Below are positions 10,670 to 34,400 of a stretch of 64,000 nt of DNA, one piece after another. The position numbers and the translations under genes are program-made. The stretch comes from Candidatus Heimdallarchaeum aukensis. GTDB taxonomy: Archaea; Asgardarchaeota; Heimdallarchaeia; Heimdallarchaeales; Heimdallarchaeaceae. The stretch's first letter is position 1, and each line of letters starts with the position of its first letter. The notes beneath the pieces are model-generated. The model saw only the letters and a program-made list of their open reading frames with translations. It did no database searches and was not told where the DNA came from. The DNA lies in assembly GCA_021513695.1 (NCBI GenBank), contig CP084166.1:256001-320000 (forward strand). The letters run 5' to 3'.

Positions 10670-10752
10670 ATAATGTGCTGAAATAAAAACCTAATTTAAG
10701 GATTTAGACTTGATAATCTAATAAACTTTAAATATTTCAAACAAAGAATAGA

Positions 10753-11907: not shown

Positions 11908-12358
11908 TAAGTAAAAAAAAATTTCTACATCAAAACAAAAAAAACAAAATTCATTGTTAATTTTTTCTCTTTTCGCAATGAAAATATTAAGTAAAAATTT
12001 TTTGTTCTTTAGAAGTCTATATTAATAATCTCAACAGAAAAAAACAGACAAAAATTTCTCACTTAAAAAAGTAAAAATGGAAAATATGATATTATTTGGC
12101 TTGGAAAATAGCAAATAGAAAATAACAACTCAAAAATTCTACTTAGACAGGCCCATTCTACTGATTGTTGACCACTATATAAATGCCCGTAAGACCACAA
12201 TATGCTTAATTTTGAGAATATAAGTGTTACAGCACTTAATATTAACTTATTTTGTTATTTCACGTTAAAAGCGATAATTGCAATATTACTGCAATGTGTA
12301 TAGTTATTTTTAATACAAATTACTCTTTAGTTTACTTGCAGATATGGGTGAAATGTAA

Positions 12359-13690: not shown

Positions 13691-14423
13691 TTTTTTCACT
13701 TTTATTTGGGAAACCGTGGTGGCAATTTTTACAGGAACAGCATCACTTAGTTTCTTTGTAATTTTAGTAATCTTGTTCCTACGCTTTCTAGTTGATGCTT
13801 TTATTCCAAGTAAGCTACAGATGTTATTGAATATCCTTTTTTTCCCAGGATCATTTATGCATCAAGTTATACAGACAATTGCAGTAAGAGCTTGTGGATA
13901 TGATGTTAAAGTAAATTTTCATATGGCTTTTGATCGAGATTATGCAAGTCAAAGCATAAAAGGAGATTTAACTCATGTTTCTCATGCAGCTTTTATTGGC
14001 TTAAGTCCTTTTTTGAATATAGGATTGGTTGTAGCAATATTGAAATTTAGTGATGATATATCAGGAATTTTCTTGAAATTTGGTATGCCTTTTATGGGAA
14101 CTTTCTTGAAAATTTATTTGTTATTGTGTTTTGCATTTTTTTCAATTCCTGATGTACAAGATCTAATGTTACCTTTTTACACTTTGACGGTAGCTTATTC
14201 AGAATTTATTGCCCTTTTAATGGTCAGTTTACTTTTCTTTGTCTTTGCTGTTGGAGTTTGGGGATGGCTTATTCCTTCAATTAACTTTCTACTCTTTGTA
14301 GTCTTTGTTTTATATTTGGTTAAAAAAAGACAAGATTCTAACTACAAAGCTGGTAATCTACAACCTATTAAACGAAAACAAAGTCAAAATGAGGGAGATG
14401 AAATATTGCTTTTGGAGGTTTAA
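13683..14423 (+). CDS. integral membrane protein
   Basis: 246 aa with about 6 hydrophobic segments. Overlaps the upstream gene by 8 nt and abuts the giant gene start, so probably one operon. Confidence 0.4.
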   Translation: MSNFFTFIWETVVAIFTGTASLSFFVILVILFLRFLVDAFIPSKLQMLLNILFFPGSFMHQVIQTIAVRACGYDVKVNFHMAFDRDYASQSIKGDLTHVSHAAFIGLSPFLNIGLVVAILKFSDDISGIFLKFGMPFMGTFLKIYLLLCFAFFSIPDVQDLMLPFYTLTVAYSEFIALLMVSLLFFVFAVGVWGWLIPSINFLLFVVFVLYLVKKRQDSNYKAGNLQPIKRKQSQNEGDEILLLEV

Positions 14424-14425
14424 AA

Positions 14426-17400: not shown

Positions 17401-20400
17401 AATAGGTGTTAACATAAACTTCTATATTGATGGACTGTTGTTAAGTGAAATATCTACAGATTCAAATGGTTTTGGAAGCTATTATTGGACAATTGATTTA
17501 AGTTCTGGTAATTATTCCTTTAAAGCTGTGGTTTTAAATCAATCTATCTATATTTCTTCTTCTTGTATCCAGGAATTTGAAATAATAAAGGCTGACGTAT
17601 ATATTCAAAGTTCAGATTTGATTATGACCTGCAATGAAACAAAAACAATGGAATTTTATGTTTATTCTATTAATGGAGAGATAACAAATCTATCGTTAAA
17701 CATATCATTGTCTAACGGTTATTCAACAGTTTTAACCAGCAATAGCTCAGGTTATGCTGTTTGGAGTATTCCTATTCTCCCATCTGGTGTATACACAGTA
17801 AACGTTACCTTTAATGGAGATGATAAATATAATACGATATCTGTTAGCTATTCACTTGTTGTTAATAAGATTGAGACAAATGTTATTCTTTTTGCAGAAG
17901 ATAGTTTTTATTCTGAAAACTATAAGATCTGTGGATATGTTGAAAATTCAGAAGGACAAGGAATTGAGGGTATTGCTGTAAATCTATTAATTAATGAAAC
18001 ATTTACTCTTTCAACAACTACATTATCTGATGGAAGTTATTTATTCCTCGTTCTTCTACTTCCTGATTATTATAATATCGAGGTACAAATAGAAGGGAAT
18101 GATTATATTAATCCAAGTTCAAGAAGCACAAGTGTTTATATCTATAAACTTTCGTCTTCTTTGAACGGAAAAATTGAGTTTATAAATGACACAATGATAA
18201 TAACGGCTAATCTAACTAGTTCATCAGAACCTGTAGAAGGACAAATAATCTATTTCTATGTGAATAATTCACTAGTAGGGACTAATCTTACTGATGTATA
18301 TGGTCAAGCAAGAGTTGAATTGTTAAATATTACTCCTAGCTTATATTCTGTAAACATTGAGTATAAAGGTAATGAAATATATCAAGAATCTTCAACAAAT
18401 ATTCAAGCAGAGAAAGATAAAGAACAGACAGAAATCAAAGTTAGTGTTGAAGAAGGTGTTTATTCTCAATCTCCAACCAATATTTTTATTTCATTAAGTT
18501 CTAATGGAGAAGCTTTATCTAACCAATATATTAAGCTGAATTTTGATAACGATAGTTATTTAGCTTTAACCAATTCTTCAGGTGTAGCAGTTATTGCTTT
18601 AGATATAAACTACCTGCCTGGAAATTATAACGGAGAGATAGTCTATGAAGGAAGTGAAATATACTCATCAAATGCTGTTTCAGTGAATATAACTATTTAC
18701 AAGTCAAACTGTGTTTTCAGTTCTCTTGAAATTCAATACTTAGAAACTCTGACAATCCTAAATGGAAAAATAGAAGGTAAATATCCATTAGAAAATGAAA
18801 GCATATTCATTGAAATAAATGGGAGTAGTTACAATGTTCTTCAAACTGATGAAAATGGAGTTTTTTCTTCAGTTTTAATTTTAAATCCTGGTGAATATAC
18901 ATTAACTGCTATATTCTTAGGAAATGATTGCTATTTACCTGTAAATCAGTCAATTTACTTTTCTATCTCTAAAATAGCTTCAGGGTTGGAAATATATGAC
19001 TTTTCTAAAACTCTGGAATATGGAAAAGAAGAACTTGTAGAGTTCAAACTTTATTCATACAACAATGAATCAGGAATTGAAGGACAAATCTCTGTTATGA
19101 TTAATGGTTCATTAATAACTATTGTAGAAACAAGTAGCGATGGATTAGGTTCATTTCTACTTCCTAATGATTTATCAGTAGGGACTTATATTCTCCAGAT
19201 TTCTTTTGCTGGAGATGATCTATATTACTCTACTTCAGAATCAATAACAATCAAAGTGAAATATAAACTTGAAATTTCAATTACTGAATCAGACTTGAAG
19301 AACTATGGAATAGAAGCTTCTATCAGCGGTATTCTAAATATTCCTCTAGAAGGAATAAGTCTAACGCTAAATATTACTAACCTAAATTATTCAAATGTCG
19401 TAAAAACCAACAGCGATGGAGAATTCATTTTTGTTATTCCAAGCAATATTCCATCAGGAAATATGACAATTGTATTGTTTATTGAAAAAACTGAAACTAT
19501 TTTAGATACAAACTATTCGTTTGAGACAACAAGGGGTTATGGAGAATATTCTGTTTTATTTACTAACCTTGAATTTGATATAAATAGCACAGAGAGTATC
19601 ACTGGTAAAATATCTTATAATGGTGATTACAGTTCTTCAGGAAAGATATATATCAAAATAAACGATACTATTGTTCTTACACAGGAATTCAACGAACTAG
19701 GTGAATTTAACATAGCTCATTCAATATTTGATCTACTTCCTGGAGATTACAACATTAAATTCTATTTTGAGTTTGATAACGAGAATTTTAGAAGCCAAGA
19801 ATTGACAATTAAAATAGAAATATTAAAACTTGAATTAAATCTGGAAGTCACTACTAGCAGTTCTGAAATTCAAGTCTATGATGTTTTATCATTAAATATA
19901 AGCGCAAATTATCCATTAGATAAGGATAGAATAAAACTATTAGTTAACAATACTGAATATTCGAATAATGAGTTTGAAATTATAGAATATGAGAATTATC
20001 TTACCGCAAACATAGTAATTGAATTAGCAGGTAATATAAACATAACTGTGATATTTGAAGAAAATGACTTCTTTTATAGAAGCGAAAAAAGTTTAATTAT
20101 TCAAGTTCTTAAAAGAGATGTTGGCTTTGAATATAATCGAGATACATTTTATTACAATTCCAGCATTCCATTGATAATAGAACTTATTTCATTTAAGAAT
20201 GAGACAGATATTGAATTTACAGTTCTTCTGGGAGAAAGAGCCGAAACAGGAGTAAAGACAATAAGTTTCATACTCACTAATATTTTCATTGGAGACTATC
20301 AAGTGTATATGTTGTTTGAAGGAAATTCTTATTACAACTCTTTTAACTCTTCATTTGTTATCCATATTATTCCTCAACCAACAAAGATAGTTTTCAAAGA

Positions 20401-20791
20401 AAATAAATCAGATTATCTTCTAACATTACTTTTACTAGATTCAGAGAATAGAAGTATTTCTAATGCAGAAACAACGATATTCTTCTTAGATACTACTCAT
20501 CTGGTTTTAGAAAATCGTACTCTCTTCACTGATGCAAATGGTTATTTGTATTTAGATGTCAGTACATTTCCTGAAAAAACAACAATGATAAGGATTGTTT
20601 TTGATGGAGATGTGGTATATGAGGATACGATGATCGATATAGAAGTTGAAGATATTGTCAAAACTTATACCCAGAATGTAAAAATCCCGAAAATGAATAT
20701 GATACATATGCTAATCTCTATTCCTGTAAGCATTATAGGATTAATAGTATATTCAAAAAAAGACATTTTCAAGAATCTTAAAAAACATTAG
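14426..20791 (+). CDS. giant cell-surface protein (2121 aa): signal peptide, more than 15 tandem Ig-like/CarboxypepD_reg-like beta-sandwich domains, C-terminal TM anchor
   Basis: N-terminal MKKKLKFMLIMFLVLPLSLNHVLA signal. Recurrent domain-core motifs TDENGYAKT, TNDTGYGKITL, TNSQGYFSM, TDTEGCFYLSY, TNESGIAQLNI, TDSNGFGSYYW, TDVYGQARVEL, TNSSGVAVIAL, TDENGVFSSV, TNSDGEFIFVIP, TDANGYLYLDV, spaced about 90..110 aa apart. C-terminal hydrophobic helix MIHMLISIPVSIIGLIVY followed by KK. Confidence 0.7.
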   Translation: MKKKLKFMLIMFLVLPLSLNHVLAENVIELLNLQSRYPINYKSKDSDVISIKSTIGKDNELSIRKKENSVISSLNNEFVSPYSPKLSYGLYKTFTQISSVPESINKGENISVTSSTKFDLGTLYPVDQGTIYWYDLNCLEEDLGVSTSFVESSKIAISFNLTSPSNYMGVYFDISNLADLTGDVLNVYLTSDLENYSTDYLAKSELSFKYYNSQAGVSGFYAIYDSPTTTQVDNSLLAGETYFVVLEGDSSLRIETSLDSEEYDDNKVYVFSGGSWGLEQGIDAKIRIFSGQKITEKTISSSSNGETTITYQSSQSSFKYHTLVAFYYDTSGMYDLSSDSSDFKVIDSTIPEYISLNSPSIAEYTDYIELKAYVENYYHQELENQTVYFYYSEDNSSWIEIGSSISDSTGVAKINFLISKASGYYYFKAVTQNLETFNYTETTKEQVIIETPLVQTIYGNLSGSDTLETFSLKVQVHDNDNTPISGVMVFFYVEGKTFVYDITDENGYAKTHSYSVNWAVGYYNNKYWVNIDLDTNLYSFPDTQYGDIEVQKSNLQIYSLDNNTINVWINDSYFSFEVKDPENDSVANIEFESILYDPYFDEYVSLGYAFTNDTGYGKITLPAYFKEPGKYTLIIRISDPNYNVIEENLQLELYASSSIIECNLPSSIEYTYNSSLLIEGNVTDINGKPLANANITVKITDPSISSNWVLYIYTTETNSQGYFSMNLTLDVEVDQELVITIHVENYYGSNGEISYYATSSQEYNLLCVRRDAEILNVQDFITQNQETIIISGLLIDSGEPLSGKEIRIIIQEENYYIITDTEGCFYLSYQVNFGTNVNFTVVFGSDNHYNVVNLTRTIFSSPISLNIEIEDVICNPNTLIYLSSYVYSDLGTTPENVQVEFYWYDEQWILLGIVFTNESGIAQLNITSPDKVGEFSWKAIVVQTEDWLESSSNLKLFQIGYHTSISMEAPIQGQYGNEIRINFTVTDQFGQPIGVNINFYIDGLLLSEISTDSNGFGSYYWTIDLSSGNYSFKAVVLNQSIYISSSCIQEFEIIKADVYIQSSDLIMTCNETKTMEFYVYSINGEITNLSLNISLSNGYSTVLTSNSSGYAVWSIPILPSGVYTVNVTFNGDDKYNTISVSYSLVVNKIETNVILFAEDSFYSENYKICGYVENSEGQGIEGIAVNLLINETFTLSTTTLSDGSYLFLVLLLPDYYNIEVQIEGNDYINPSSRSTSVYIYKLSSSLNGKIEFINDTMIITANLTSSSEPVEGQIIYFYVNNSLVGTNLTDVYGQARVELLNITPSLYSVNIEYKGNEIYQESSTNIQAEKDKEQTEIKVSVEEGVYSQSPTNIFISLSSNGEALSNQYIKLNFDNDSYLALTNSSGVAVIALDINYLPGNYNGEIVYEGSEIYSSNAVSVNITIYKSNCVFSSLEIQYLETLTILNGKIEGKYPLENESIFIEINGSSYNVLQTDENGVFSSVLILNPGEYTLTAIFLGNDCYLPVNQSIYFSISKIASGLEIYDFSKTLEYGKEELVEFKLYSYNNESGIEGQISVMINGSLITIVETSSDGLGSFLLPNDLSVGTYILQISFAGDDLYYSTSESITIKVKYKLEISITESDLKNYGIEASISGILNIPLEGISLTLNITNLNYSNVVKTNSDGEFIFVIPSNIPSGNMTIVLFIEKTETILDTNYSFETTRGYGEYSVLFTNLEFDINSTESITGKISYNGDYSSSGKIYIKINDTIVLTQEFNELGEFNIAHSIFDLLPGDYNIKFYFEFDNENFRSQELTIKIEILKLELNLEVTTSSSEIQVYDVLSLNISANYPLDKDRIKLLVNNTEYSNNEFEIIEYENYLTANIVIELAGNINITVIFEENDFFYRSEKSLIIQVLKRDVGFEYNRDTFYYNSSIPLIIELISFKNETDIEFTVLLGERAETGVKTISFILTNIFIGDYQVYMLFEGNSYYNSFNSSFVIHIIPQPTKIVFKENKSDYLLTLLLLDSENRSISNAETTIFFLDTTHLVLENRTLFTDANGYLYLDVSTFPEKTTMIRIVFDGDVVYEDTMIDIEVEDIVKTYTQNVKIPKMNMIHMLISIPVSIIGLIVYSKKDIFKNLKKH

Positions 20792-20848: not shown

Positions 20849-22264
20849 ATGAACAACAAAGAGAAAAATCAAAAACTATCCTTTTTAAAAAATCAATATA
20901 GTAGACTACTCGATAAATTATCAAAGTCAATTGTAGTAAAAATCAGAGAACAAGGAAAACTCCCTTTCTTTTTAGTAGTTTTAATTTGGATAGTTTTCTG
21001 GGGAAGCTCCTTTTACTTTATTACAGTCTTTATGCCTGTTAATTTGTTGTGGTTAAGAGTATTCTTACCTGTATTTATTTCTCTTATTGTTGTTAATGCT
21101 TCAACAGAATTAGGAAAAAAGGTAGTGGGTTATCATAATGAAAAAGAAGAGAAAGTTGAGAAAGAAAGTTCTTCTTCTCTCTTAAGTGAAGAAAAGGACA
21201 TTTCTACAAAAGAAGGTTATTCTTTGAAATCAACTTTCATTCTTCGTGATAAGAAAGGGAAAAAAATTTTTCTTATTAATAAAGGCAAAATTATTCCTGT
21301 TTTTTTGGTTAGCATATTGAGTACAGGAAACAAAGAAAAAGGATACACATTTTCTTCTTTGTTGAATTATCCTTTAAGAAATGAAATGAAAGAAATAGAA
21401 TTTTCAGTTTTAGACACAGATAAAGGAGAATATTTGCTTTTTCTAGGAAAAGAATACAAAACTAAAAACAAAAATTATACAGAATTATTAAAGGAAAATG
21501 AACAGTTTTTCTCAAAAATAGAGATTATAGTTGCTGAATTAAAGAGAGACAATAATTTAGAATTAGAAGCTGTTGAAGATTCAATACTTAATGAGCTTTT
21601 TCCTCTTTATTCTGAAGTATTATGTTGTAAAAATGAAGACACTAACAAAAAGGAACAAAAAATAGAAGAAAAAAATCATCTACAGTTAAAGAGTGAAAAT
21701 AATAATCTAAATAATGCAAATAATGGAAAAGAATATAATCAAAATGGTGAGAGCAGTAATAGATTCAGACCTTTTTCAGTTAAAACTGAACTTACACCAT
21801 ACCAATTAACGAAGGTTGCAGAAAAAAAAGAACTACTATTATCTGAACTCACTTATTCTTTTGATAATTTCATTGATATGTCTAAAGTATTTTATAAAAA
21901 AGCTCTTGAACATCAATTGAACGCAAAGTTTCCTATCTCCGAGGATAATTTTCTTAAACTTATACAACTCTTTGTAGAAAAGAATAAGTATGAATTCTTT
22001 TATCCAAGTTTCTTTAAACTAGAGAAGTATGAATCTTTCAAAGTCTTTGAAACTCCTAGTTCAGAAGAGATAGAAGAGTTTTCTGAAGAACTAGTAAAAG
22101 AATGTATGTTTACTAATTTAGATACTGAAGTAAAGAAAGAGTTGCATTCCTTCCTTACTCAAAAAATCAAAAATAGGAAGCATAGGCAAGAAGTAAAACC
22201 TGTAGGAATTAAAGTATCTTCTACAATTCCTAGGCCATCAGTAAAATCTTTATCAGAATCTTGA
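20849..22264 (+). CDS. membrane-anchored hypothetical protein
   Basis: 471 aa. Two N-terminal TM helices (LPFFLVVLIWIVFWGSSFYFITVF; LRVFLPVFISLIVV), then a long charged/low-complexity domain. Confidence 0.4.
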   Translation: MNNKEKNQKLSFLKNQYSRLLDKLSKSIVVKIREQGKLPFFLVVLIWIVFWGSSFYFITVFMPVNLLWLRVFLPVFISLIVVNASTELGKKVVGYHNEKEEKVEKESSSSLLSEEKDISTKEGYSLKSTFILRDKKGKKIFLINKGKIIPVFLVSILSTGNKEKGYTFSSLLNYPLRNEMKEIEFSVLDTDKGEYLLFLGKEYKTKNKNYTELLKENEQFFSKIEIIVAELKRDNNLELEAVEDSILNELFPLYSEVLCCKNEDTNKKEQKIEEKNHLQLKSENNNLNNANNGKEYNQNGESSNRFRPFSVKTELTPYQLTKVAEKKELLLSELTYSFDNFIDMSKVFYKKALEHQLNAKFPISEDNFLKLIQLFVEKNKYEFFYPSFFKLEKYESFKVFETPSSEEIEEFSEELVKECMFTNLDTEVKKELHSFLTQKIKNRKHRQEVKPVGIKVSSTIPRPSVKSLSES

Positions 22265-22273: not shown

Positions 22274-22909
22274 ATGATTGAAATAGTTTTTTTGAATTTC
22301 TTGAATCTCTTTGTTAAAATATGGCTATCAGCTCTTTTAATTAATATTCTACTTTCCACTCTCTTAAAACCAATTTATAAACATCTGTTGGCAATAGGCT
22401 TGGTTTTCAATTTACCAATTAAGCGACTATTTTATTGGATCTATAGAGTACCCATTGAGAATATAGATTGGGAAAACGGTCTAATTAGAACAAAGAAAGT
22501 GAATAATATGGATTGTCTAGCAACTACAGTTGTGATCATGCCTGTATTTATTTTAAGCTACTTATCTAGTTGGTTATTCTATTTTGCAGGTAAAATCTAT
22601 CCCTATGGTTACAAGTTCTTTGGAATTGTTCTTTATATTGTCGCTTCGTTAAGTCTAGCTTTCAGTATTCCTAACTTTGAGGAATTGAAATTGTTTAATA
22701 ACATTAATCTTCATTCCTCTTTGGTCTATTTACTAAAATGGGTATTTGTAGTTATAGTTGTCTTTTCAATAGTTGAGTTTACTTCTATCTCTCTTGATGT
22801 ATTAACTACAGTGATATTAGTTCTTTTAGCTACTCCATTTTATAGTTATAAAGAAGATGAAGAAAATGTAGAGAATATTAAGAAAATTATTGGTGATCCA
22901 TTTGCATAA
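22274..22909 (+). CDS. integral membrane protein
   Basis: 211 aa, about 5 hydrophobic helices. Overlaps the next gene start by 20 nt. Confidence 0.4.
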   Translation: MIEIVFLNFLNLFVKIWLSALLINILLSTLLKPIYKHLLAIGLVFNLPIKRLFYWIYRVPIENIDWENGLIRTKKVNNMDCLATTVVIMPVFILSYLSSWLFYFAGKIYPYGYKFFGIVLYIVASLSLAFSIPNFEELKLFNNINLHSSLVYLLKWVFVVIVVFSIVEFTSISLDVLTTVILVLLATPFYSYKEDEENVENIKKIIGDPFA

Positions 22910-23525
22910 ATGGACTCTTTCCAAAAATGAGCGAATGATACATCTTTATGGTCCCCCAGCAAGTGGTAAGACTACTTTAGCAATTCAATTATCTAGAAAA
23001 GTCTTTCCTCGCTCAACAATTTATTTCATTACTTCGCATAGAAACGCAATTACAAAAAGAGCAAAACAGATACTAAACAAGAATTATCTTAAAGAATTTT
23101 ATTTAATTAAAGTTTCTAGTTTAGATGATTTATTTGAAAAAATTCAATCTATTAATAGCTTAGGAAAAACAATAGGATTGATTGTAATAGATTATATCTC
23201 TGATTTTGTTAGAGGGAAGCTATACAAGGAAGAAGTAAAAAACAAGGTAAGGAAGATATTAGAAAAACTTTTTATTTTCTCCTCACAAAAAGATTGTTTA
23301 GTTGTGATAGTCAATAGTTTTTCAATAAAAAATGAAGCTCCTTTGAATTCTTTAGTTGAAAGTTTTTGTGACATGTCAGTTTATTTGTCGATTAAAGATG
23401 ACAAATACAATTTGGAATCAAATGGTAAAAATATAAAAAGAACTTTTGTAGTCGATGAAAAAATTATTTCCAGCTTCGTTATTGATGAAAAAGGAATTAA
23501 AGATTTAATTATTGTGTCTGAATAA
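22890..23525 (+). CDS. radB: RadB-like short RecA-superfamily ATPase (archaeal RadA paralog)
   Basis: About 200 aa with no N-terminal HhH domain. HLYGPPASGKTTLAIQL Walker A matches RadB-type (GPyASGKTTLALQ). GLIVIDYISDFVR Walker B region. CLVVIVNSFS strand. ORF-track start is a TTG; an in-frame ATG lies at 22935. Confidence 0.65.
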   Translation: MVIHLHKWTLSKNERMIHLYGPPASGKTTLAIQLSRKVFPRSTIYFITSHRNAITKRAKQILNKNYLKEFYLIKVSSLDDLFEKIQSINSLGKTIGLIVIDYISDFVRGKLYKEEVKNKVRKILEKLFIFSSQKDCLVVIVNSFSIKNEAPLNSLVESFCDMSVYLSIKDDKYNLESNGKNIKRTFVVDEKIISSFVIDEKGIKDLIIVSE

Positions 23526-23585
23526 ATTTTTTTCCTTTAAATAGTATTCTTTAGATTAACTAATAAAAAAGGAAGTCAATGGTTA

Positions 23586-24056
23586 ATGTATTCAGAGCAA
23601 GAAGTGATAAGAAAAATAACAGAAACTTGGAAATTTGAAAATAAAGTATGCGTGAAAGAACTACAAATTCCTTTAGTAGGCAAAAATATCAATTATCCTT
23701 TTTTAGAAAATAGAAAAAGCATTCGTATAGATCTTGCTTGCTATGATATTGTATCTGATAAAATTATTTTTGTTGAAGCAGAAAATGGTCTGTGGCTTCC
23801 TCATCCCCAAATTTATAGACCTTTTTGTGATATGTTATATGTTGCTACTCCCTATGATGATAGTTACTATAGAGAAAAGCAACTTGAGTGGGCAAAAAAT
23901 GAAGGAATAGGAGTAATTGAAGTTCTTTATGATGGTTACATTATAGAAACATTAAAACCTGTAGTTTTTCCTGATTCGATGGATATCTCTTTAAGAGAAG
24001 AAGTTCTAGCACATTTTGTTAAGAAACTCAAAAAAAACGAAAAAATAGCTGATTGA
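23586..24056 (+). CDS. hypothetical protein, possible PD-(D/E)xK (restriction-endonuclease-fold, Hjc-like) nuclease
   Basis: 156 aa. IRIDLACYDIVSDKIIFVEAENG resembles the D...(E/D)xK core strands of Hjc (vDLvA....IEVK), but the lysine position is not conserved. Weak. Confidence 0.3.
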   Translation: MYSEQEVIRKITETWKFENKVCVKELQIPLVGKNINYPFLENRKSIRIDLACYDIVSDKIIFVEAENGLWLPHPQIYRPFCDMLYVATPYDDSYYREKQLEWAKNEGIGVIEVLYDGYIIETLKPVVFPDSMDISLREEVLAHFVKKLKKNEKIAD

Positions 24057-24113
24057 TTTTTTATTACTAATTTTTTCTCTCTTTTAAAAACAATTTTATT
24101 TATAATTTAGCTG

Positions 24114-27100
24114 ATGAAAGGAACTGCTATTGCCACATCAAAATTTCAAGGTAAGAATCAAGCTATTTATTCAATAAAAAAAGATGATAAAATTACTTTA
24201 TACTGTGCGTTCATTATTAGACCAAAAAAGAAAGAAGTTGAGAAAAAAGGAGATTATGAAAAAAAAACTACTATTTTTGTAACAGATACTAAAAGTCTTT
24301 TTTTGCCTTTGAATATTGATTCAAGTCTAAAAATTATGCTTCACCGCTTTATTTTACCAGCTAAACTCAGAAAAATAACAAAAGAAAAAAATAAAGGAAT
24401 AGAAATCTCTAGAAAAAAAGAAGAGAGTGAAGAAATCAATGTATTTTTAACTTATTATATCTTTAAAATCTCAAAAACTTATGATCTTACCGTAAATTTA
24501 CTTTCAATGAATACATTGTTAGAAGATTTTGCAGAAACTGTTAGATCTAATTTAAAAGAGTTGTTCTTATCTTTAGGAGCAGTAGGAAGAATAACAGGAG
24601 AATTATTAGAAAAAATCGTTTGTTTGAATGTTACAGATAAATCGTCTATTATCAATAACAACTCTAAAGAATTTTTAACAGAGCTTGCAAAAGAGTTTGT
24701 TGTAATAGAAAAAAGTACAGAAATCCAATCAATTTTCCTCCCTGGTCCTTCCGTAGATTTAAGAACTTCGAGTGTATTTTTTACTCCTTCAAGAATAGAA
24801 TCTGCTTTTCCTTTAGGGAAGACGGAAGAAGGTTTTCTTGTAGGCTTTCCTCCCTCTTTCTCTTACCCCATACTTTTGTGTGGAGATAAGAAAATAAGAA
24901 AAATTTTACTCTCCAAAATTTTAGAAAATTCATCTGCTAAATTTATTGTTTTAGGAGAGATAAATGGAAAAATAAGAAAAAAGAATGTAAAGTTAAGTTT
25001 AGGAGAGAATTTTACATTTAATATCTTATCTCCTATGTTTATGCGAAAAGTACTGTCAGAGAGAGATTATTGGCGTTATCTGAGTGATTTTCTACTCATA
25101 GTTAAAGAAGTAACCGAAGTTAGAAATGAAAATCTTTTACAAATTCCTGAAATAATTAAATTTTATATCCAAGAATATGAACAAAGTGAAGATAACCTCT
25201 TTACTCCTTTTGATTATAGTTCTGTAACTATTGACGATATTTATACAATGCTTACATCTGAACCTGGAGGATTAATAATTTCAGATTATCAATTAGCTGC
25301 TTTACGTTCTGTTTTTACTGATATTAGCGATAATTCAGTTAGCACGGTAACTAATATTAATGGAAAACATGGAATTGAAGCATTAATTGACCAGAACCAT
25401 ATAATTGACTTCAGTAAACATTCAATAAAAGTTAGAAAAATATTCGTTTATTCGTTATTGCTTCAACTTTATTTATATTTTCAAACAGATTTAATTTCTA
25501 AACCAGTAATAGTAGTAATCGACAATGCAGAATTATTCTTTTCAACTGAAGTTGAAAGAACTTTTATTTCAAAACTACTCACACTATTTGAATCTCTACC
25601 TGTAAATATTATCCTTTCAACAAGTTTTCCTTCTCATCTAGCTCTTACTGCTTTTGATTTAACAAATAATAGAATTATAGCTAATCTTCGCTCTGCTAAG
25701 TGTGCAAAATTAATTGCTGATTCACATAATTTATTAAAAGAACAGAAAGAAATGCTTCTTCGCCTTCCACAAAATTCCTTTCTTATCCTCCGGGAAGATT
25801 TTTTTGAGAAACCCTTTCTTGCTTACTTACAAAGAGAAGATCTAAATTTGTTTTCTAATTCCAGACGATTCAATCTTGAAAAATTGGATTCATTAGTAGA
25901 TATTGGAAACACTAGTGCAATTTTAGAAGATGAAAATAGAGTAATTGAACCTATTTTTGATGAAGAAGATCTTCTTCCTATTATGATTGATATTTTAAGA
26001 AAACTTGATTCTAAAGCTCAAAGGGGAATCAACTCTGAATCATTGGTTAATCTCTTTCCTGACTATCCTGCAATTGAAGTTAAGAATGCTGTAAAATTAT
26101 TAGAGTTAAGAGGATTGATTTTTCGTGAGACAGTTGATAAAGAAGGAAGAAAAGGTGAATTTTGGACAAAAATAAGTCCTTTAGGCAAGAAAATGTTATC
26201 TAGATTCGAGATTCAATCCATAGCAAAGAATGATAAAATTGACAAAGTTGAACGAAAAGAAGAGGAGATAACTATTTTAAAAAATGAACAAAGTCATAAT
26301 GAAAAAATATCTAACAAAAAGCAAAACAATGGAAAAAAAGATTCTTTAGAACAATCAGAAGTTATTAACCATTTAGAGAAGGTACAAAACAATTTAAAAA
26401 ATAGTAGGAATCCTGTTGATGCTTTTTTGGATTCAATAATGAAAGTTGAAAAAAAAGCCATACAAATATTCTCAAGAAAAGGTAAAAAGATAGGTAAAAT
26501 TTCAGATTTTTACATTTTGTTACATGACTTTATCCAAAAGGCAAAAGCTGTAGATTTCAATATTCAATCAGAGCTAAAAGAGTTTGAGCAGTACTTAAAC
26601 TCACTTTATGATGTTTTAGAAGATAGTGAATCCCTTGAACAAATGTCAGATGAAATATTAGAAAGAGTAATGAGAAAAGGATTAAATCTCTTAGATCAGA
26701 TACATGTTAAATGTTCTTTTGATAAGATCGAAAGAAACTCCAGTAATCTTCCAGAACTTCTTGAAAAAGAATTAAATTCTGATAAATGGGAAAACATTGA
26801 AACTAAATTTGATGATGAAGTAGTGAGTGATATTAAGCATAATATAAAGAATGACATACAATCAATGTTCTTAACTGATTCTGAAAAACAAGTTTTTCAG
26901 GTACTTAATCATGCATTAGAAGCTCCTAAAGACAGTTTTATTGATTATGCTAGAAAAGCTATAGCAAGACTAATGAAAATAAAAATGCAGTTTTACCCTA
27001 ATCTCGATGATAAAGAGTTTATTATTATTTTTGTAAGATTCTTTGAAAAAAATCAATTACCAATACCGTTTAATGAATCGATTCTGATGGTTGATGAACT

Positions 27101-27269
27101 AGCTTTTCTTAGCACAATTTCCAAACAAAAGAAAAAGGAAATAATCGCGAAAATAATAGAGGAAAATAACTCATTTGTGTTTGATTTAGATGATAAAAGT
27201 AAAGATAGTCTTGTTATTCAGTTAAAGGAAATTGTCTCAAAAAGTCTAAGAAAGTTAAAAGAGGAATAA
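24114..27269 (+). CDS. large hypothetical protein (1051 aa), possibly a degenerate P-loop NTPase-like domain plus a helical C-terminal half
   Basis: No canonical GxxxxGK[ST] found by eye. Walker-B-like PVIVVIDNAELFF and sensor-like IILSTSF blocks are present. The C-terminal 450 aa are charged and helical. Confidence 0.45.
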   Translation: MKGTAIATSKFQGKNQAIYSIKKDDKITLYCAFIIRPKKKEVEKKGDYEKKTTIFVTDTKSLFLPLNIDSSLKIMLHRFILPAKLRKITKEKNKGIEISRKKEESEEINVFLTYYIFKISKTYDLTVNLLSMNTLLEDFAETVRSNLKELFLSLGAVGRITGELLEKIVCLNVTDKSSIINNNSKEFLTELAKEFVVIEKSTEIQSIFLPGPSVDLRTSSVFFTPSRIESAFPLGKTEEGFLVGFPPSFSYPILLCGDKKIRKILLSKILENSSAKFIVLGEINGKIRKKNVKLSLGENFTFNILSPMFMRKVLSERDYWRYLSDFLLIVKEVTEVRNENLLQIPEIIKFYIQEYEQSEDNLFTPFDYSSVTIDDIYTMLTSEPGGLIISDYQLAALRSVFTDISDNSVSTVTNINGKHGIEALIDQNHIIDFSKHSIKVRKIFVYSLLLQLYLYFQTDLISKPVIVVIDNAELFFSTEVERTFISKLLTLFESLPVNIILSTSFPSHLALTAFDLTNNRIIANLRSAKCAKLIADSHNLLKEQKEMLLRLPQNSFLILREDFFEKPFLAYLQREDLNLFSNSRRFNLEKLDSLVDIGNTSAILEDENRVIEPIFDEEDLLPIMIDILRKLDSKAQRGINSESLVNLFPDYPAIEVKNAVKLLELRGLIFRETVDKEGRKGEFWTKISPLGKKMLSRFEIQSIAKNDKIDKVERKEEEITILKNEQSHNEKISNKKQNNGKKDSLEQSEVINHLEKVQNNLKNSRNPVDAFLDSIMKVEKKAIQIFSRKGKKIGKISDFYILLHDFIQKAKAVDFNIQSELKEFEQYLNSLYDVLEDSESLEQMSDEILERVMRKGLNLLDQIHVKCSFDKIERNSSNLPELLEKELNSDKWENIETKFDDEVVSDIKHNIKNDIQSMFLTDSEKQVFQVLNHALEAPKDSFIDYARKAIARLMKIKMQFYPNLDDKEFIIIFVRFFEKNQLPIPFNESILMVDELAFLSTISKQKKKEIIAKIIEENNSFVFDLDDKSKDSLVIQLKEIVSKSLRKLKEE

Positions 27270-27281
27270 AAAGGGAGAAGG

Positions 27282-29393
27282 ATGAATGAAATAGAGTTAA
27301 GTTCTGAAAAACTAGAGGATTTTCAACAGAGGTGTATGGAAACTTTTTTGAAAAAAGAAAATTGCCTTATTTCTTCTCCTTCTTCTACAGGAAAAACATT
27401 TCTAGTTAAAGAATATATTAAAAATTACATTATAGAAAACTACTCAACTATTCTACGATCTCCTAAAAAAATGAAAATAGTGCTACTGTTTCCTTATAAG
27501 GCGATTGCTATACAAGAATTTAACTCACTAGTCGATTTTGCAGAAAAAAAGATGATCAAGATATTCTTATCTGTTGGAGGAGTAAAGTTAAACAAAGAAA
27601 CAGTAATGGAAGCAAATATTATTGTTGGAACATTTGAAAAGTTTTACTTCATTTTGAATCTATTCCCTGAAATTCAAAAGAACTTGAAAATATTGGTAAT
27701 AGATGAATTTCACTTTTTAGGTTATAATAGGGGAAAAGTGATAGAAAGTATATTATTAAAAGTTAAGGAAAACAAAAATACACAGATTATTCTTTTATCC
27801 TCATCAATCGGGAATCCTGAGGAAATAGCAAGTTGGTTAGGCTTTAAACTTTTGCAATATAATAAACGCTTAGTACCGTTGGAATTGAATATAAAAAAAA
27901 TTGAAAAATCTCTTATACAAGAAATATTTTCAATCAGCAAAGCTAACTTACCTGCTATTATATTTCAAAACTCAAGATCTAAAGTAGAAAAATTAGCTCT
28001 AGAATTAGCAAAAAAAAGAAAAGATGTATTGATAAAGAATTTCGAAGAGTTTTTCGTAAATTCTCCTAACCTTATTTCAATAATGGAAGAAGTTTATTTC
28101 CCTGATAAACTAAAAGAAGCAATTTCAAAGAGAGTGGCTTATCATCATGCAGGTTTAAGTGATATAGTTAGAGTATTTGTAGAACAATTATTTCTTTCTG
28201 GAGAGATTGATTACTTGATTTCTACTTCCACTCTGTCAGCTGGAATAAATCTTCCAGCTAAAATGTCAATTTTTGTTATAGAAAGAAAACAATCTGAAGT
28301 TGATAATAATTTAATTTTTCAAATTCTGGGGAGAGCAGGAAGATTTGAGTTTCAAGATAAAGGAATAGGAATTCTATTAATAAGACCAGCTTATTTGAAA
28401 GAATATAGCGACAAACTTTTTGACCAAAGAGGAAAACCTATTTACAGTAGTTTAAAAAGCCAATTTTTTGACTATGATTTTTTGATCAAATATTTTCTGG
28501 TAGAAATCGCATTTTCTAAGGAACCTGTTTCAGTAAGGATAGAAGATTTATTAAAAAAAATCGAGAATTCACTATGGTTTTATAGTAACAAAGAAATATT
28601 CTTAGTATTTAACTCTAAAGATGTTCATTATGCACTTTTTTCTCAAGCCTACTCAAGTTTGGATTATGAAGAGATAGTTGATTATTATGAGAAATTAGAT
28701 GAAGCTTTTGGTATAAAGCCTTCTAATTTACAACTCGTTTCTAAGCAAGAAAAAGGCAAAGGTAACTTCTCTTTTATAATTTTAGAGAATGAAAAAAAAT
28801 ACAAAGTAATTATGAATTTAGAAAGAAGACAATGTTCTTGTCAGTCAAAGTACAGCAATTATCTTTGTAGACATCAGCGTTTTTTGATTAAGATGTATCC
28901 TTTCATGAAAGAATATTGGTTAAATAAATATGGAATAATCGATTGGCTGATCGATAATGGTTTTTTAGTTAGAAGCAAAGGAATGAAGGTTAATCCTACT
29001 TTATTGGGAAAAATTTCTGCAAAATTTTTTATTCACCCTTATTCTTTTCTTCATTTTCTTCATTTATTAATTATCTATCCTAACATTAACTTTTCCTCTT
29101 TTTTTACTAAAGTTGTTCTATTCGATGAACAAATAAAGAGAGATATTAAGTCAAATGAACTAACAAATATACAAGCTTTGCAAATATTTCAACTATTAGT
29201 AAAACAAGAACCATTAACAATATGCTCAAAATACAATATTTCAGACAGTCTATTAGAAAATTGGCAAGAAATATATACCAAGTACAAGAGTTTATTTTTT
29301 GAATTAAAGAAACTTATGGGAAAAAATCTAGCAAAAGGGAACTTTACAAATAATTTCCTCACGAAAAATGAAGTTGAAGAAACAATTCGTTAA
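27282..29393 (+). CDS. Ski2/Hel308-like SF2 DExH helicase with an embedded SWIM-type zinc finger
   Basis: 703 aa. Motif I SSPSSTGKT, Ia PYKAIAIQ, II VIDEFHFLG, III LLSSSIG, V TSTLSAGINLPA (compare Hel308 TPTLAAGVNLPA), VI ILGRAGRFEF. SWIM signature CSCQSKYSNYLCRH (CxCx8CxH) near residue 520. Confidence 0.7.
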   Translation: MNEIELSSEKLEDFQQRCMETFLKKENCLISSPSSTGKTFLVKEYIKNYIIENYSTILRSPKKMKIVLLFPYKAIAIQEFNSLVDFAEKKMIKIFLSVGGVKLNKETVMEANIIVGTFEKFYFILNLFPEIQKNLKILVIDEFHFLGYNRGKVIESILLKVKENKNTQIILLSSSIGNPEEIASWLGFKLLQYNKRLVPLELNIKKIEKSLIQEIFSISKANLPAIIFQNSRSKVEKLALELAKKRKDVLIKNFEEFFVNSPNLISIMEEVYFPDKLKEAISKRVAYHHAGLSDIVRVFVEQLFLSGEIDYLISTSTLSAGINLPAKMSIFVIERKQSEVDNNLIFQILGRAGRFEFQDKGIGILLIRPAYLKEYSDKLFDQRGKPIYSSLKSQFFDYDFLIKYFLVEIAFSKEPVSVRIEDLLKKIENSLWFYSNKEIFLVFNSKDVHYALFSQAYSSLDYEEIVDYYEKLDEAFGIKPSNLQLVSKQEKGKGNFSFIILENEKKYKVIMNLERRQCSCQSKYSNYLCRHQRFLIKMYPFMKEYWLNKYGIIDWLIDNGFLVRSKGMKVNPTLLGKISAKFFIHPYSFLHFLHLLIIYPNINFSSFFTKVVLFDEQIKRDIKSNELTNIQALQIFQLLVKQEPLTICSKYNISDSLLENWQEIYTKYKSLFFELKKLMGKNLAKGNFTNNFLTKNEVEETIR

Positions 29394-29431: not shown

Positions 29432-31276
29432 TTGAAGCTGATGAAAAGAGATAATTTCCTACTTACATTTTTAATTTTAATTATAGTATGTACAATTTTA
29501 CTTATTCCGCTTTATTTTACTGAAGCTCACTATTTAGAACAAGAGGAAGAAAAAAAGCAAATAAAAAATGAGCTTCAATCTACTATCCTTATTCCTCATG
29601 ATATTGTCTTTAATTTCACAGATAAACTTTCTAAATACACTTACTCTTTTGTTCAGAATCTTACATTAAGTGGATTATATGGTTTAGAAATTCTGTTTAA
29701 AACTGGTGGGAGTTTAGCTTTAAGTGATACCTTAAAAGTAAAGATAGTTATGGAGGATAGAATAAATATCAGCTTCACAATAGATAAATTATTTCAAGAC
29801 TCCAATATTCATTCTTTAACAAAAAGTCTTTATTGTGAAAATATTGGAGAAGAAGCAAAGATAACAATATATTTTGAAGGACAATGTTTCATTGGAAAAG
29901 AGGGTAATCTAACTCTTTTCAAAACTATTAATCTTTATTCTTATGATATTCTATCTTTAAAAACAGAAAAAATTATTAGTCCTGACGTTATCCCTCATTC
30001 TATCTCTTTTTCAGGGAATTCTTTCTCCAAAAAGACTTTTTCTGTAAAATCATTTTTTAATGTAGAAAATACAAACATCACAAAAATTAAGTTAAATTTT
30101 ACATTTAATACAAATGATTTTGTTTCACTAGAAAGAAAAATAACTTTTCAGATAGGTTCAAACCTTACAGAAAAGGATTTTAGTTCAGGATTAAACACAA
30201 TTTTATTGTCATTAGATTGTGGAAGTGATCTAAATATTTTGAATATCTCTTTTACAGTAGGTTATAGCTCTGATATCATACATTTAGAGGATTTTAGTTT
30301 AAGTATTGAAGTAGAGAAAGAAGAAGAAACAAGTAAAGAAAGAGAAATTCTTGAATTTAAAGAATGGGAAGGAGATAAGATAGATTTAACTTTTGACATC
30401 TCAATTCTAAAAAATGAGCAGAGTTCTAAGGAGTTAATAATAAACTTAAATCTTAGTTGTGGTTTTGAAGGTGCAACTGTAACTCCTTACATTGAATTTA
30501 GAATTATTTCTGGAATATATACTATTTATACAGGAAAAGTAATGAGTTATGAACAAAGCGAAGAAGAGTTAATAAAAATAAATACTTATACCTACACTTA
30601 CAATAAACCTCTATTAGTTAACTTTTACGCTAAATTAGAAAATAGTGGGAAAGGACAGATCTTTATTTACAATTCTTCTAATCTTACTGCTTCAAAAATC
30701 CCACAAATGTCTTCTAAAGGTTTATTTAGGGAAGTAGAATCAGAGAAAAACGTCTACACTCCTCAACTAGGTGCAGTCATCCTAAATTACTACGATGTCT
30801 TTTTCAATGATTATTCATTAACAATAGATTATGTTTTTAATTTGACTTTTACCCTTTTCACAGATTATGATGAAGTTTTTGATAGAATAAATGTTGGAAT
30901 AACAATAGGCGTAAATACTTCAATAAATAAGATTTTTAGTAAACCTGGTAAGATCTCAATTACTGAAGACGTTAAAATCTATCAAGGATATAACGAGGTT
31001 AAAATCAAGTTAACAATTTATGGTTCAGGAACCTATGTCTCTCTCAGAAATATAACTTATAGACTTAATCCGATTAAAGATTTTTCTTTTCAAGATGAAA
31101 ATCAAACAATTAGTTCGGTAAATATTCCCTTGATAAAACCCCCTTATACAATAAGTTTAGGAATAAGTTCGATTTTAGGTCAATGGGTAATTGGAGGAGT
31201 ATTCGCTAGAGTGTTTAACAGTAGCAAAAAGAAAAATAAACTCTCTAAAAATATGAAATATAAGTTAGAGTTTTAA
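29432..31276 (+). CDS. bitopic membrane/surface hypothetical protein
   Basis: 614 aa. N-terminal anchor FLLTFLILIIVCTILLIPLYF and C-terminal hydrophobic segment ISLGISSILGQWVIGGVFA followed by a KKKNK tail. Middle region beta-rich and Asn/Ser/Thr-rich. Confidence 0.4.
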   Translation: MKLMKRDNFLLTFLILIIVCTILLIPLYFTEAHYLEQEEEKKQIKNELQSTILIPHDIVFNFTDKLSKYTYSFVQNLTLSGLYGLEILFKTGGSLALSDTLKVKIVMEDRINISFTIDKLFQDSNIHSLTKSLYCENIGEEAKITIYFEGQCFIGKEGNLTLFKTINLYSYDILSLKTEKIISPDVIPHSISFSGNSFSKKTFSVKSFFNVENTNITKIKLNFTFNTNDFVSLERKITFQIGSNLTEKDFSSGLNTILLSLDCGSDLNILNISFTVGYSSDIIHLEDFSLSIEVEKEEETSKEREILEFKEWEGDKIDLTFDISILKNEQSSKELIINLNLSCGFEGATVTPYIEFRIISGIYTIYTGKVMSYEQSEEELIKINTYTYTYNKPLLVNFYAKLENSGKGQIFIYNSSNLTASKIPQMSSKGLFREVESEKNVYTPQLGAVILNYYDVFFNDYSLTIDYVFNLTFTLFTDYDEVFDRINVGITIGVNTSINKIFSKPGKISITEDVKIYQGYNEVKIKLTIYGSGTYVSLRNITYRLNPIKDFSFQDENQTISSVNIPLIKPPYTISLGISSILGQWVIGGVFARVFNSSKKKNKLSKNMKYKLEF

Positions 31277-31473: not shown

Positions 31474-34400
31474 ATGACGTCATCTGTCATGTCAACAACT
31501 GTCCTAAAATCATTATTGTTAATTCTAGTTCTTGCTCCAACAATAGTAATGATAAATAATAATGAAAATAATTTATTTAACCTACAAAATGAAGAAAATA
31601 GTAAGAATGAGATTTATTCATTAAACAACAGTAATGAGAATTTTATTGACATATCGAATAAAAAAAATAATGATAATATTCTAGAAAACGACGTAAGAGC
31701 TAGTAATAAGGATAGAATACTTTTATCTTCTCTTCCAGATAGCGCTAATTGGGTAGAAAAAAATGAGTCATTTACTGGTAGATTTTATCAATCATTAAGT
31801 GATTTAGATGAAGATAAAATCCCAGAGCTTATAACTCTTTCTGATACTAATGGGCAAATTCAAGATATTGGAGAACCTGGTTATACAAAATTTTTGGAAT
31901 ATAACGAAACAACAGGAACTTTTTCAAATGAACTATTGTCTATTAGTACAGCGGGCCCTACAATTTATTATCCTGTTGAAGCTTATGCTGATAATGCTGT
32001 ATATTTGCTCGAAAAGACTTTTTCAGCAGATAATTCTGATCATATTTTTGTTTGGAAAAAATGGAATGGAACTGATATTATCAACGTTTCTTCAAATATC
32101 TATATTAAAAATGATGGTTTATATGATTATGACAGTTATGATTTTGATTTAGATGGAAATGTAGATTTAGTTTGTAATTGGGGTTATTATTCAGGTGTAT
32201 GGACAAGATTAGAGTTAGAGAATGGGCTTTTTTCTTCAACTGATTATTCATTTTATAACGGGGGCAGATCTATTTTTGTAGAAGATTTGGATAACGATGG
32301 TAATCCAAATGTAGCTGTACTATATGCTGTTGATAAAATAAATATTTATAATTATAATCCGAGTATAAATGATTTCCAATTTCAACAACAAATTACTGGT
32401 ATTAGTTCATTAAAAGTAATGTATCCTTGGGATTATGACCATAATGGCTATACTGATATTATTGTTGTTTCTCATGAGACTGGAGTTGTTATTTATTCAT
32501 ATGAATGGGATAGTTCTTCTTCTTCTTATGTTCAAAAACTATCATATACCATTCCTGAAGCGACAGATAGTCAATGGACTGGTGTTCCTAGGTATTGTGA
32601 TCTTCTTGGAGATGGAGAAATTACAATGGTTTTTGATATTGTCCGTAATTCACGTTCTGAAATAGGTTTTATCACTTATGAAAATAATAACTTTGCTTTT
32701 AATTCTATTTATAATCATACAGATAGTTCGAAAATTTATTTTACATCTGCTCAAATTGATAATGATCCAGAAAGAGAAATTCTAGTAAATTATGAAAAGA
32801 ATGTAGATGAATTCTATACGAAAATATTAGATTTGGAAGCGTTTAATGAGGGTCGGTATTTTGAAACTTTTGACTCTGATGTTTTTCTTTCTAATCCAAA
32901 TATGAAATATTCTTGGAGCAGGAGTAAAGATAATGTAGTCGTATCTAATGGATCTTTAAAAATTTTAGCTGATGAAACAAATGATGATTATGCAAAACTA
33001 CAACTTTTTTCTGGAACTAAATCAATACAAATCAGAGCTAGAGTAACTTTAAATGGTGACAAATTCAACTATCCTGAAATAATAATTAAAAATGACAATA
33101 ATGAAATAGTAGCCAATTTGACATTTAGTCAAATAGATGGATGGCAAACACCACAGTTAAGCTATTTAAGTGATTACAGAGGACCAACAATAAAAGGCGT
33201 TTGGTATGATTTAATGATCAACTTTGGTTTTAATTCTCTTACATTTTATACAAAGAAGCCTTATCAAGATTATTGGCGCTATATTGCCAGATTTAATATT
33301 AATGGAAATTTAAACGAATTAATTTTTTATCAACGCAATAATGCAGAAATAGAAATGGATTCTATTGACATTTTTTATAGTTATGACAGTGATAATGATG
33401 GGTTAAGTGATGATAGCGAAACTCTAATCTATCAAACTGATCCTCTAGATCCTGATACTGATGACGATGCTTATACAGATGGAGATGAAATAGAAACAGG
33501 AACAGACCCACTTGATCCTTTAAGTTATCCCAAATCTTACTCCTCAATTTTTTCAGAAAATTTTGAAACAGGAATATTAGATGAAAATAATTGGAGTTTG
33601 TATTCTTCCAATAATGTTGGAGAATGGACTATTGTTAAATATCAAGGAAACTATTGGGTACAGCATCTTTATTCAGGTAGTGTGATAGGACATACTGATC
33701 CTAACATACTTGTTTCATCTCCTCTAAATTTTGGTGACAATTTTACTATTTCATATGTAGTTAGACCTCTCACTTATCAATACGATGAGGTTGGAATTTT
33801 CTTTCTCTGTCCTAATGGTACAGGTTTCAGACTAGGAACTTTTAATGTATATCATGATTTTATAAGAATAGGTGCTTCTAGCTATTATGATTTTGCTTTC
33901 ACAGCTGATTTAGATAAGACTTATTATATGAAAGTTACTTATGTAGATGATACAGTTACCGTTTTTTGTAATGACTCTCAAATTGCACAGGTAAATAATA
34001 TAGACCTCCCATCTGAAGGATCATTAGGATTAAGGAGTAGAGGATATTATGGTCAAGCTTCTCATGCTCTTTATGACAATATTACAATACATAGTACAGC
34101 TTTGTTAAATGAGACCTTTGATTTTGATATCTTTGACACTTATTCAAATTGGATAAGAGATACTACTTCTTTTACTGTTGATACAACCAATAGTTGGTTA
34201 CATAAAGGTACAACAGGTAGTTATAATCATATTGCAAAATATAATAAAACAATACAATTTCCATTCACTATAAATGTAAGAGGAAGATTGGTAAGTGGAG
34301 GATATGATTATACATTTCCTGGATTATATCTCTGTTATCCAAATGGTTCGTCAATGTCAATTGTTTTTAATGGAGGAGGTACAGGAGGAGACTATTGGAC

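Follow-up and report, generated by a model that had tools for sequence, protein, structure and literature searches.

The cluster of four genes at positions 22890-29393 in a stretch of Candidatus Heimdallarchaeum aukensis DNA (contig CP084166.1, positions 256,001 to 320,000, forward strand; its full 64,000 nucleotides (nt) are hereafter the window) raises the question of what a Rad51-like ATPase, a small nuclease-like protein, a very large degenerate ATPase, and a helicase do together beside membrane proteins. Heimdallarchaeia are the archaeal lineage now placed closest to eukaryotes, and their recombination machinery has usually been inferred by annotation transfer from euryarchaea and crenarchaea. 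We find that the cluster belongs to an operon of seven or more genes that is lineage-specific and vertically inherited and has been found only in Heimdallarchaeota. The predicted proteins suggest a lineage-specific elaboration in which a RadA-linked Rad51-core paralog, a SWIM-bearing helicase of the Ski2/Hel308 type, a pseudo-enzyme derived from HerA, and a small nuclease are all tied to membrane proteins. Literature searches yielded no description of the cluster, in keeping with a first-pass annotation of the window that had singled it out as the best candidate there for an undescribed system.

A conserved operon in Heimdallarchaeota

The open reading frame (ORF) coordinates bear out the tight, co-directional arrangement reported for the four genes, including the overlap of the first with a preceding membrane gene. 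All four lie on the plus strand, with intergenic gaps of 60, 57, and 12 nt, and the RadB-like gene, which starts at a TTG, shares its first 20 nt with the end of the TM211 ORF. An equivalent overlap is found in H. endolithica (CP084167.1) and in a divergent clade of relatives; an alternative internal ATG (Met16) of the RadB-like ORF would leave TM211 clear. The four-gene frame is nevertheless too narrow. The conserved unit also takes in the ORFs at 20849-22264, 22274-22909, and 29432-31276, so that the cluster is firmly joined to three membrane proteins, an association the first-pass annotation missed. The unit in the window, in amino acids (aa), is as follows.

20849-22264, plus strand: p471, 471 aa, starting with a transmembrane hairpin (from hydropathy) that a variable acidic linker connects to a conserved C-terminal domain
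22274-22909, plus strand: TM211, a 211-aa multi-pass membrane protein whose stop overlaps the RadB-like start
22890-23525, plus strand: RadB-like gene, 211 aa, TTG start
23586-24056, plus strand: small PD-(D/E)xK gene, 156 aa
24114-27269, plus strand: HerA-like gene, 1051 aa
27282-29393, plus strand: helicase gene, 703 aa
29432-31276, plus strand: TM614, 614 aa, one transmembrane segment near the N-terminus, 16 NxS/T sequons

The 1051-aa and 703-aa ORFs have orthologs at 34-100% identity, in unchanged order, in ~23 other genomes, and this, together with their length in a genome of low GC content (window GC ~28%), indicates genuine genes rather than chance ORFs. The 1051-aa protein has a match of 100% identity in a Heimdallarchaeaceae metagenome-assembled genome. 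The composition of the cluster is not anomalous. Scans of the window for tRNAs and Rfam families gave no matches. None of p471, TM211, and TM614 significantly matched a family in Pfam, NCBIfam, or PADLOC; TM614 probably has an exposed domain, given its 16 sequons.

Relatives of the block were collected by neighbourhood look-ups and by a scan in which each GTDB species was represented by a single genome, with the very distant protein P0029 left out of the scan alignment. This gave 24 loci, all in metagenome-assembled genomes (MAGs) of Heimdallarchaeota, with one copy per genome (~23 genomes besides that of the window) and none elsewhere; no relatives of the block were found in viral contigs. 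Most of the loci are divergent, at 34-40% identity. As judged from a tblastn table and the ORF coordinates, the block in these loci begins with TM614 and continues through p471, TM211, and the RadB-like, small, big, and helicase genes, with stops and starts that overlap or abut, as in locus L033:

4442-6283: TM614
6340-7767: p471
7764-8420: TM211
8410-9456: RadB-like gene
9514-9990: small nuclease gene
9971-13090: big protein gene
13083-15281: helicase gene

The position of TM211 and its overlap with the RadB-like gene are kept in all clades, and wherever the sequence of a locus extends far enough, a p471 ortholog directly precedes the block. In many relatives the conserved unit additionally includes two further genes, which in the window are these.

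9578-10669, plus strand: canonical RadA (HhH and Rad51 domains; Pfam Rad51 175 bits), 12 kb upstream of the block
14426-20791, plus strand: giant surface protein, 2121 aa, with a signal peptide, Ig-like repeats of the Big_1/Big_3_5/MG type, and a C-terminal anchor

In most loci the giant Ig-repeat protein travels together with both RadA and the block. Both follow the helicase in nine loci (L004, L015, L016, L020, L021, L022, L029, L031, and L033); the RadA start lies ~60-250 nt past the helicase stop in six of these, and 1.3, 2.0, and 5.4 kb further in L029, L015, and L020, respectively. The Heimdallarchaeum clade, including the window, has the same genes in a rearranged order, with RadA and the giant protein upstream and TM614 downstream, so that TM614 is the last gene of the block here and the first in the divergent clade. 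Two RadA clades have been described in Heimdall-related Asgards in a preprint (10.1101/2025.05.23.655837). The very distant locus L012 (GCA_976553735.1) retains only the trio of small protein, big protein, and helicase; identity to the window is 38% for the small protein, 27% for the helicase, and, for the large protein, 18% over the length of alignment A3, with 24% in the segment that tblastn scored best. Because order, orientation, and translational coupling are kept at low identity, and because the set survived rearrangement, we consider these at least seven genes a functional operon. Neighbourhood conservation, which had been proposed as a check on the cluster, thus turned out in its favour: the linkage recurs in all relatives found.

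The four soluble proteins

Gene 1 encodes a RadA/Rad51-core paralog that is RadB-like without being a RadB ortholog. Like RadB and the eukaryotic Rad51 paralogs, the product is a lone ATPase core of ~210 aa, with no HhH N-domain and with intact Walker A (GPPASGKTT) and Walker B (LIVID) motifs; GPPxSGKT and hhhIDhhTD are kept among its orthologs. Its best NCBIfam match is RadB TIGR02237 (E 2.5e-14, 53.6 bits), in an alignment spanning model positions 15-209 of 210, and RadB is likewise the first match for 13 of 13 orthologs (top E 4e-16). None comes near the curated equivalog cut-off of 172.4 bits, against which the score of the window protein rules out RadB orthology. When the ortholog profile was compared with PDB, RadB ranked first (3.9e-11), followed by RadA, Rad57, XRCC3, and RAD51C/D, and hhalign matched the protein to the RadA core of the window itself with a probability of 94%. 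The earlier assignment therefore holds as far as a RecA-fold, RadB-like ATPase is concerned and fails for RadB proper, from which the gene also differs in its Asgard host and in its operon with membrane proteins.

Depending on the start codon used, the RadB-like ORF of most species may carry an acidic, low-complexity N-terminal extension of ~130 aa (~100-150 aa in the divergent clade) that overlaps the TM211 stop. Such extended ORFs (308-368 aa) occur in L005 (82-1158), L015, L016, L019, L020, L024, L029, L031, and L033; those of the Heimdallarchaeum clade have no acidic extension. A fusion of a membrane protein to the RecA core, considered for the 358-aa ORF of L005, was rejected, as the extension is acidic and of low complexity and is not transmembrane.

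The 156-aa protein is predicted from its structural model to be a small nuclease-like protein of the PD-(D/E)xK fold. No family was matched at the sequence level (Pfam, NCBIfam, and PDB sequences, at E<=1 to 10), and the ortholog profile returned nothing useful from PDB sequences. AlphaFold2, run on nine homologs, gave a confident model (predicted local distance difference test score, pLDDT, 89.4; predicted template modeling score 0.86) with an alpha-beta-beta-beta-alpha-beta core, which is that of the PD-(D/E)xK superfamily. Foldseek matches to this model were weak, and every one was a nuclease; the structure 3dnx (SPO1766), from the mainly alpha-proteobacterial family DUF1052, was not among them. 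That structure represents DUF1052/PF06319, a PD-(D/E)xK family (PMC3424549), from which the 156-aa protein differs in being 13% identical with no Pfam match at E<=1, in its archaeal host, and in carrying ExE rather than ExK. Residues E4, K24, E25, D49, E64, E66, N67, and H73 are invariant in the family and fit the D...ExE variant of the PD-(D/E)xK active site, not ExK. Set against the E...D...ExK constellation of Hjc, E4, E25, D49, and E64-x-E66 are all invariant and the lysine is replaced; K24 could stand in for it. Hjc had been the earlier comparison, and the nuclease fold it implied is supported by the model, whereas Hjc itself (PF01870) gave no profile match and was not the closest structure.

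The 1051-aa protein had been described as a degenerate NTPase-like protein with no clear P-loop, and this description proved apt. What it missed is that the protein is specifically, as profile alignment and modelling show, a HerA derivative with a deleted P-loop: a pseudo-ATPase of the HerA/VirB4 fold to which a winged helix and then a long helical tail are added. Its predicted N-terminal domain is rich in beta structure and leads into the degenerate ATPase core (aa ~230-575), the winged helix (aa ~620-695), and a helical C-terminal region of ~350 aa. When 1.84 billion representative proteins were searched exhaustively with the profile, no more than ~8 full-length relatives emerged; further weak matches were restricted to profile positions 430-615 and were DUF87/HerA_C proteins. 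Aligned by hhalign, the family matched HerA-like proteins with a probability of 98.1% (E 8.7e-14, 317 columns), and Foldseek placed VirB4/TrwK first (E 3e-10; template modeling score 0.62 to 4ag5), followed by HerA, TrwB, and FtsK. Pfam DUF87 and HerA_C did not match at E<=1, the profile found nothing useful among PDB sequences, and a match to the PADLOC model mad8 is confined to the Walker-B half. Three features are marked on the gene.

24861-24899, plus strand: degenerate Walker-A position (SYPILLCGDKKIR), where GSTGSGKT of HerA aligns to GD-----KK
25506-25541, plus strand: Walker-B-like block VIVVIDNAELFF, the counterpart of IDEAH in HerA
25971-26198, plus strand: winged-helix domain, H-H-H-E-E topology in the AlphaFold2 model, pLDDT ~70-79

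HerA homology thus extends to the core fold and the profile and not to the catalytic motifs, neither Walker A (GxxGxGK[ST]) nor Walker B (hhhhDE) being present. Residues G257, D258, K259, and R262 are invariant around the deleted P-loop, and the Walker-B position reads IDNAE in the window clade and IDDAE (IDDAELFF) in most relatives, in place of IDEAH. The core and the winged helix are the parts of the AlphaFold2 model that can be used, the latter region being strongly conserved in alignment A1 and weakly matched by Pfam RPA_C. Two far-diverged relatives of this protein, P0029 and P0035, are encoded in L012 and L013 (JGI 3300009788) and likewise have no P-loop; in L013 the gene downstream is not recognisably a helicase.

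The pairing of a HerA/FtsK-fold gene with a nuclease gene recalls HerA-NurA, the end-resection complex of archaea and Deinococcus, as well as HerA defence pairs such as DUF4297-HerA, Sir2-HerA, and TdpAB. The 1051-aa protein departs from these systems in its deleted P-loop, its DD/DN Walker B, and its additional winged helix and long helical tail, and its nuclease partner is a 156-aa, DUF1052-like PD-(D/E)xK protein rather than NurA, DUF4297, or Sir2. In a further difference from HerA-NurA, mre11 and rad50 are not nearby and an SF2 helicase is coupled downstream.

Gene 4 encodes what is, from its motifs, an intact superfamily 2 (SF2) helicase of the Ski2/Hel308 type, in a subfamily specific to Heimdall genomes. 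The protein is Ski2-like, Pfam detects DEAD and Helicase_C domains, and GKT, DEFH, and QxxGRAGR (SF2 motifs I, II, and VI) are invariant across the alignment. Among PDB sequences it scores highest with ASCC3 (172 bits), then with Brr2 at 157 and with Hjm of P. furiosus at 148, whereas HamB reaches a mere 40. Hel308 models (NF040935, NF001308, and related) score 131-161 bits against curated NCBIfam cut-offs of 887-1216 bits, which rules out Hel308 orthology. Orthologs (38-100% identity) are confined to Heimdall MAGs, beyond which the next sequences are canonical Hel308 proteins at 28-29% identity. The protein thus shares the Ski2-like core and every motif with Hel308/Hjm and its relatives (HELQ, the POLQ helicase, Brr2, and ASCC3) and differs in a SWIM insert and in the absence of detected ratchet and HhH Pfam domains. 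No family member matched PF21280 (ratchet, Helicase_dom4_arc) or PF14520 (HhH), both of which match the canonical Hel308 P0068; the C-terminus ends ~85 aa short of that of canonical Hel308, with no HhH domain. A winged-helix/ratchet-like fold could still exist.

The SWIM zinc finger is located as follows.

28800-28889, plus strand: C518-x-C520-x8-C529-x-H531, Pfam SWIM (PF04434)

It lies in an insert of ~110 aa between RecA2 and the winged-helix-like region that canonical Hel308 lacks, and C518, C520, C529, and H531 (n=8) are nearly invariant in the helicase family. The motif conforms to the definition CxCxnCxH with n=6-16 (PMC5727457). Pfam SWIM scores the window helicase at E 0.007 and 16.3 bits (cut-off 19.6) and matches 7 of 11 helicase orthologs, with a best E of 1.7e-4. 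A survey of archaeal Ski2-like helicases distinguishes Hel308, ASH-Ski2, and Brr2-like groups and makes no mention of one with a SWIM finger (PMC10946056). The earlier label, a Hel308/Ski2-like helicase with a SWIM finger, therefore survives in its type and its finger and loses the implication of Hel308 orthology. We caution against annotating genes of this block as RadB, Hjc, or Hel308. In L009 (13675-15811) the helicase gene is split into 136-aa and 562-aa ORFs, possibly by a frameshift, pseudogenization, or an assembly error, and the remaining operon is intact.

Possible functions of the operon

How might these proteins act together? The reading we favour, with confidence that is about evenly balanced, is that the four genes encode the soluble part, one half, of a membrane-associated module for recombination or DNA processing that is specific to Heimdallarchaeota and passed on vertically. 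Such a role is favoured by the adjacency of RadA, the Rad51-core paralog, the junction-nuclease-like fold, and the Hel308-type helicase. HerA rings organise NurA or DUF4297 nucleases, and by analogy the HerA-derived protein may be a non-catalytic scaffold or ring that binds DNA through its winged helix and positions the small PD-(D/E)xK nuclease. It would be a scaffold and not a motor because its P-loop is dead; the motor would be the translationally coupled Hel308-type helicase, whose catalytic motifs are intact. The SWIM finger is a candidate docking site for the RadB-like paralog, which would pass processed DNA to RadA, and p471, TM211, and TM614 would tether the assembly to the membrane. 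Formation of a complex, its substrate (branched or ended DNA), and the role in recombination are all inferred.

The docking proposal draws on the yeast Shu complex, in which the SWIM domain of Shu2 contacts the Rad51 paralog Shu1 (PMC5727457). As in the Shu complex (Shu2/SWS1), a canonical SWIM motif (n=8) here shares an operon with a Rad51-core paralog near RadA. Unlike Shu2, the SWIM motif is an insert in a helicase and not a stand-alone protein, and the likeness, which rests on the motif, is an analogy. Whether the operon serves processing or DNA exchange (see below), it offers a testable prokaryotic context for the SWIM/Rad51-paralog partnership of the eukaryotic Shu complex, and if a complex forms it would represent a new organisation of DNA-end or junction processing.

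Several observations weigh against a dedicated recombination module. RadA is not adjacent in L003, L009, L019, L024, L025, and L035, and a module for recombination alone offers no explanation for the three membrane proteins. The nuclease carries ExE in place of ExK and so lacks the canonical lysine, such that catalysis is not certain, and the overall AlphaFold2 model of the 1051-aa protein is poor (pLDDT 52). The first-pass annotation had proposed a stalled-fork or recombination-intermediate module built on the interactions of RadB, Hjc, and Hjm. The recombination context is upheld by the RadA genes that follow the helicase in nine loci, but a Hjc-RadB-Hjm module is not; with the gene labels corrected, that interaction network is not simply transferable to these proteins.

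The membrane proteins leave room for an apparatus that takes up DNA or exchanges it between cells, comparable in function to Ced/Ups of Sulfolobus or to bacterial competence, a reading we consider unlikely. Here p471, TM211, and TM614 would be the conduit or receptor, and the giant Ig-repeat protein, adjacent to the block along with RadA in many loci, would make contact as the adhesin of the envelope. The nuclease would trim the DNA, the SWIM helicase would act as the motor that pulls it in, the dead HerA-like protein would be an adaptor, and the Rad51 paralog would be the loader that recombines imported DNA with RadA. ComFA, a Zn-binding SF2 motor, offers a parallel for the helicase. In favour of this reading, three membrane proteins belong to the same operon, and TM211 overlaps the RadB-like gene in all clades. 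The top structural matches of the big protein include VirB4/TrwK and the coupling protein TrwB of type IV secretion systems (T4SS); a VirB4/HerA-like protein without a P-loop, however, cannot be a pump. Furthermore, no resemblance of the membrane proteins to parts of Ced, Com, or T4SS could be detected, the operon has no pilin or secretin, and the distant L012 retains the soluble trio only. Were this reading true, the operon would encode a previously unknown archaeal machine, one that serves Heimdallarchaeia as Ced or competence systems serve other prokaryotes, and its pairing of SWIM with a Rad51 paralog could foreshadow the eukaryotic Shu/SWS1 module.

It is improbable that the genes act separately and are neighbours only because their order was inherited in a part of the chromosome that rearranges slowly. 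All known carriers come from one lineage, a nearby XPD gene is likewise syntenic in some loci, and few operons have been characterised in Asgard genomes, each of which would be compatible with passive inheritance. Such inheritance would not readily account for order, orientation, and overlapping stops and starts that persist at 34-40% identity while the flanks differ between loci, for a set that came intact through rearrangement, or for the recurrence of the trio in the very distant L012.

Antivirus defence, which had been offered as the alternative to a recombination module, is disfavoured and to us highly improbable: a Hachiman-like (nuclease plus Ski2-like helicase) or HerA-nuclease-like system is suggested by helicase matches to PADLOC HamB models (up to 116 bits), the mad8 match, the HerA-nuclease pairs among PDB structural matches that are known defence modules, and the restriction-modification (R-M) system beside the block in H. 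endolithica, yet the block is single-copy, lineage-wide, syntenic, and linked to RadA rather than patchy as in defence islands, it is, so far as seen, present in all Heimdallarchaeaceae with flanks that are orthologous, no viral copies were found, HamB falls far below Hjm and ASCC3 among PDB sequences (40 vs 148-172 bits), and the R-M system sits in a slot whose content varies, the window having another gene there. Membership in Hachiman, Shango, BREX, Dpd, and MADS was rejected, the PADLOC matches being generic to the helicase or to half of the ATPase, without partner proteins; for Hachiman, no HamA (DUF1837) stands beside a HamB-type helicase. Nor did the block, one copy in each of ~23 genomes, display the patchy occurrence, variable location, or mobile elements of a defence island or mobile system.

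Neighbouring genes and variable slots

The outer flanks of the block vary by locus and contain an R-M system, beta-helix proteins, or a giant protein with TSP3 repeats. The slot between TM614 and a gene for an XPD/Rad3-type helicase is variable. In the window the slot (31474-39414) encodes a surface protein of 2646 aa in which at least 13 calcium-binding repeats of the TSP3 type are present, and GC is locally raised to 0.35-0.38 at 34-38 kb; in H. endolithica it holds a BsaWI-like restriction enzyme and an N6/N4 methyltransferase (compare L008 17874-19985 and L014). The XPD/Rad3-type gene itself (39670-41481, minus strand; DEAD_2 and Helicase_C_2) is also nearby in H. endolithica (93%) and L009 (65%), and its presence together with RadA makes this a DNA-repair-gene-rich region.

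Upstream of the giant Ig-repeat protein, two overlapping genes at 12359-14423 encode a soluble protein of 443 aa and a multi-pass membrane protein of 246 aa, a pair that matches no known family and is kept only in the Heimdallarchaeum-near clade (L008, L010, and L011). Directly upstream of RadA, a 602-aa ORF (7411-9219) with no Pfam match has a 28%-identical counterpart in a like position in L010 and L011 and may be another uncharacterised DNA-metabolism gene. Genes of mobile elements lie ~15-20 kb upstream of the cluster, namely a TnpB/Cas12f-like gene with a TNB domain (1989-3443, minus strand) and an rve-family integrase/transposase with helix-turn-helix domains (5854-6792, plus strand). 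At the other end of the window, of the ORFs at 54721-55779 and 51809-52678 (minus strand), one encodes a protein in which an archaeal type IV pilin N-terminal signal is fused to a domain like 3-keto-disaccharide hydrolase, and a ParA/MinD-type ATPase lies nearby.

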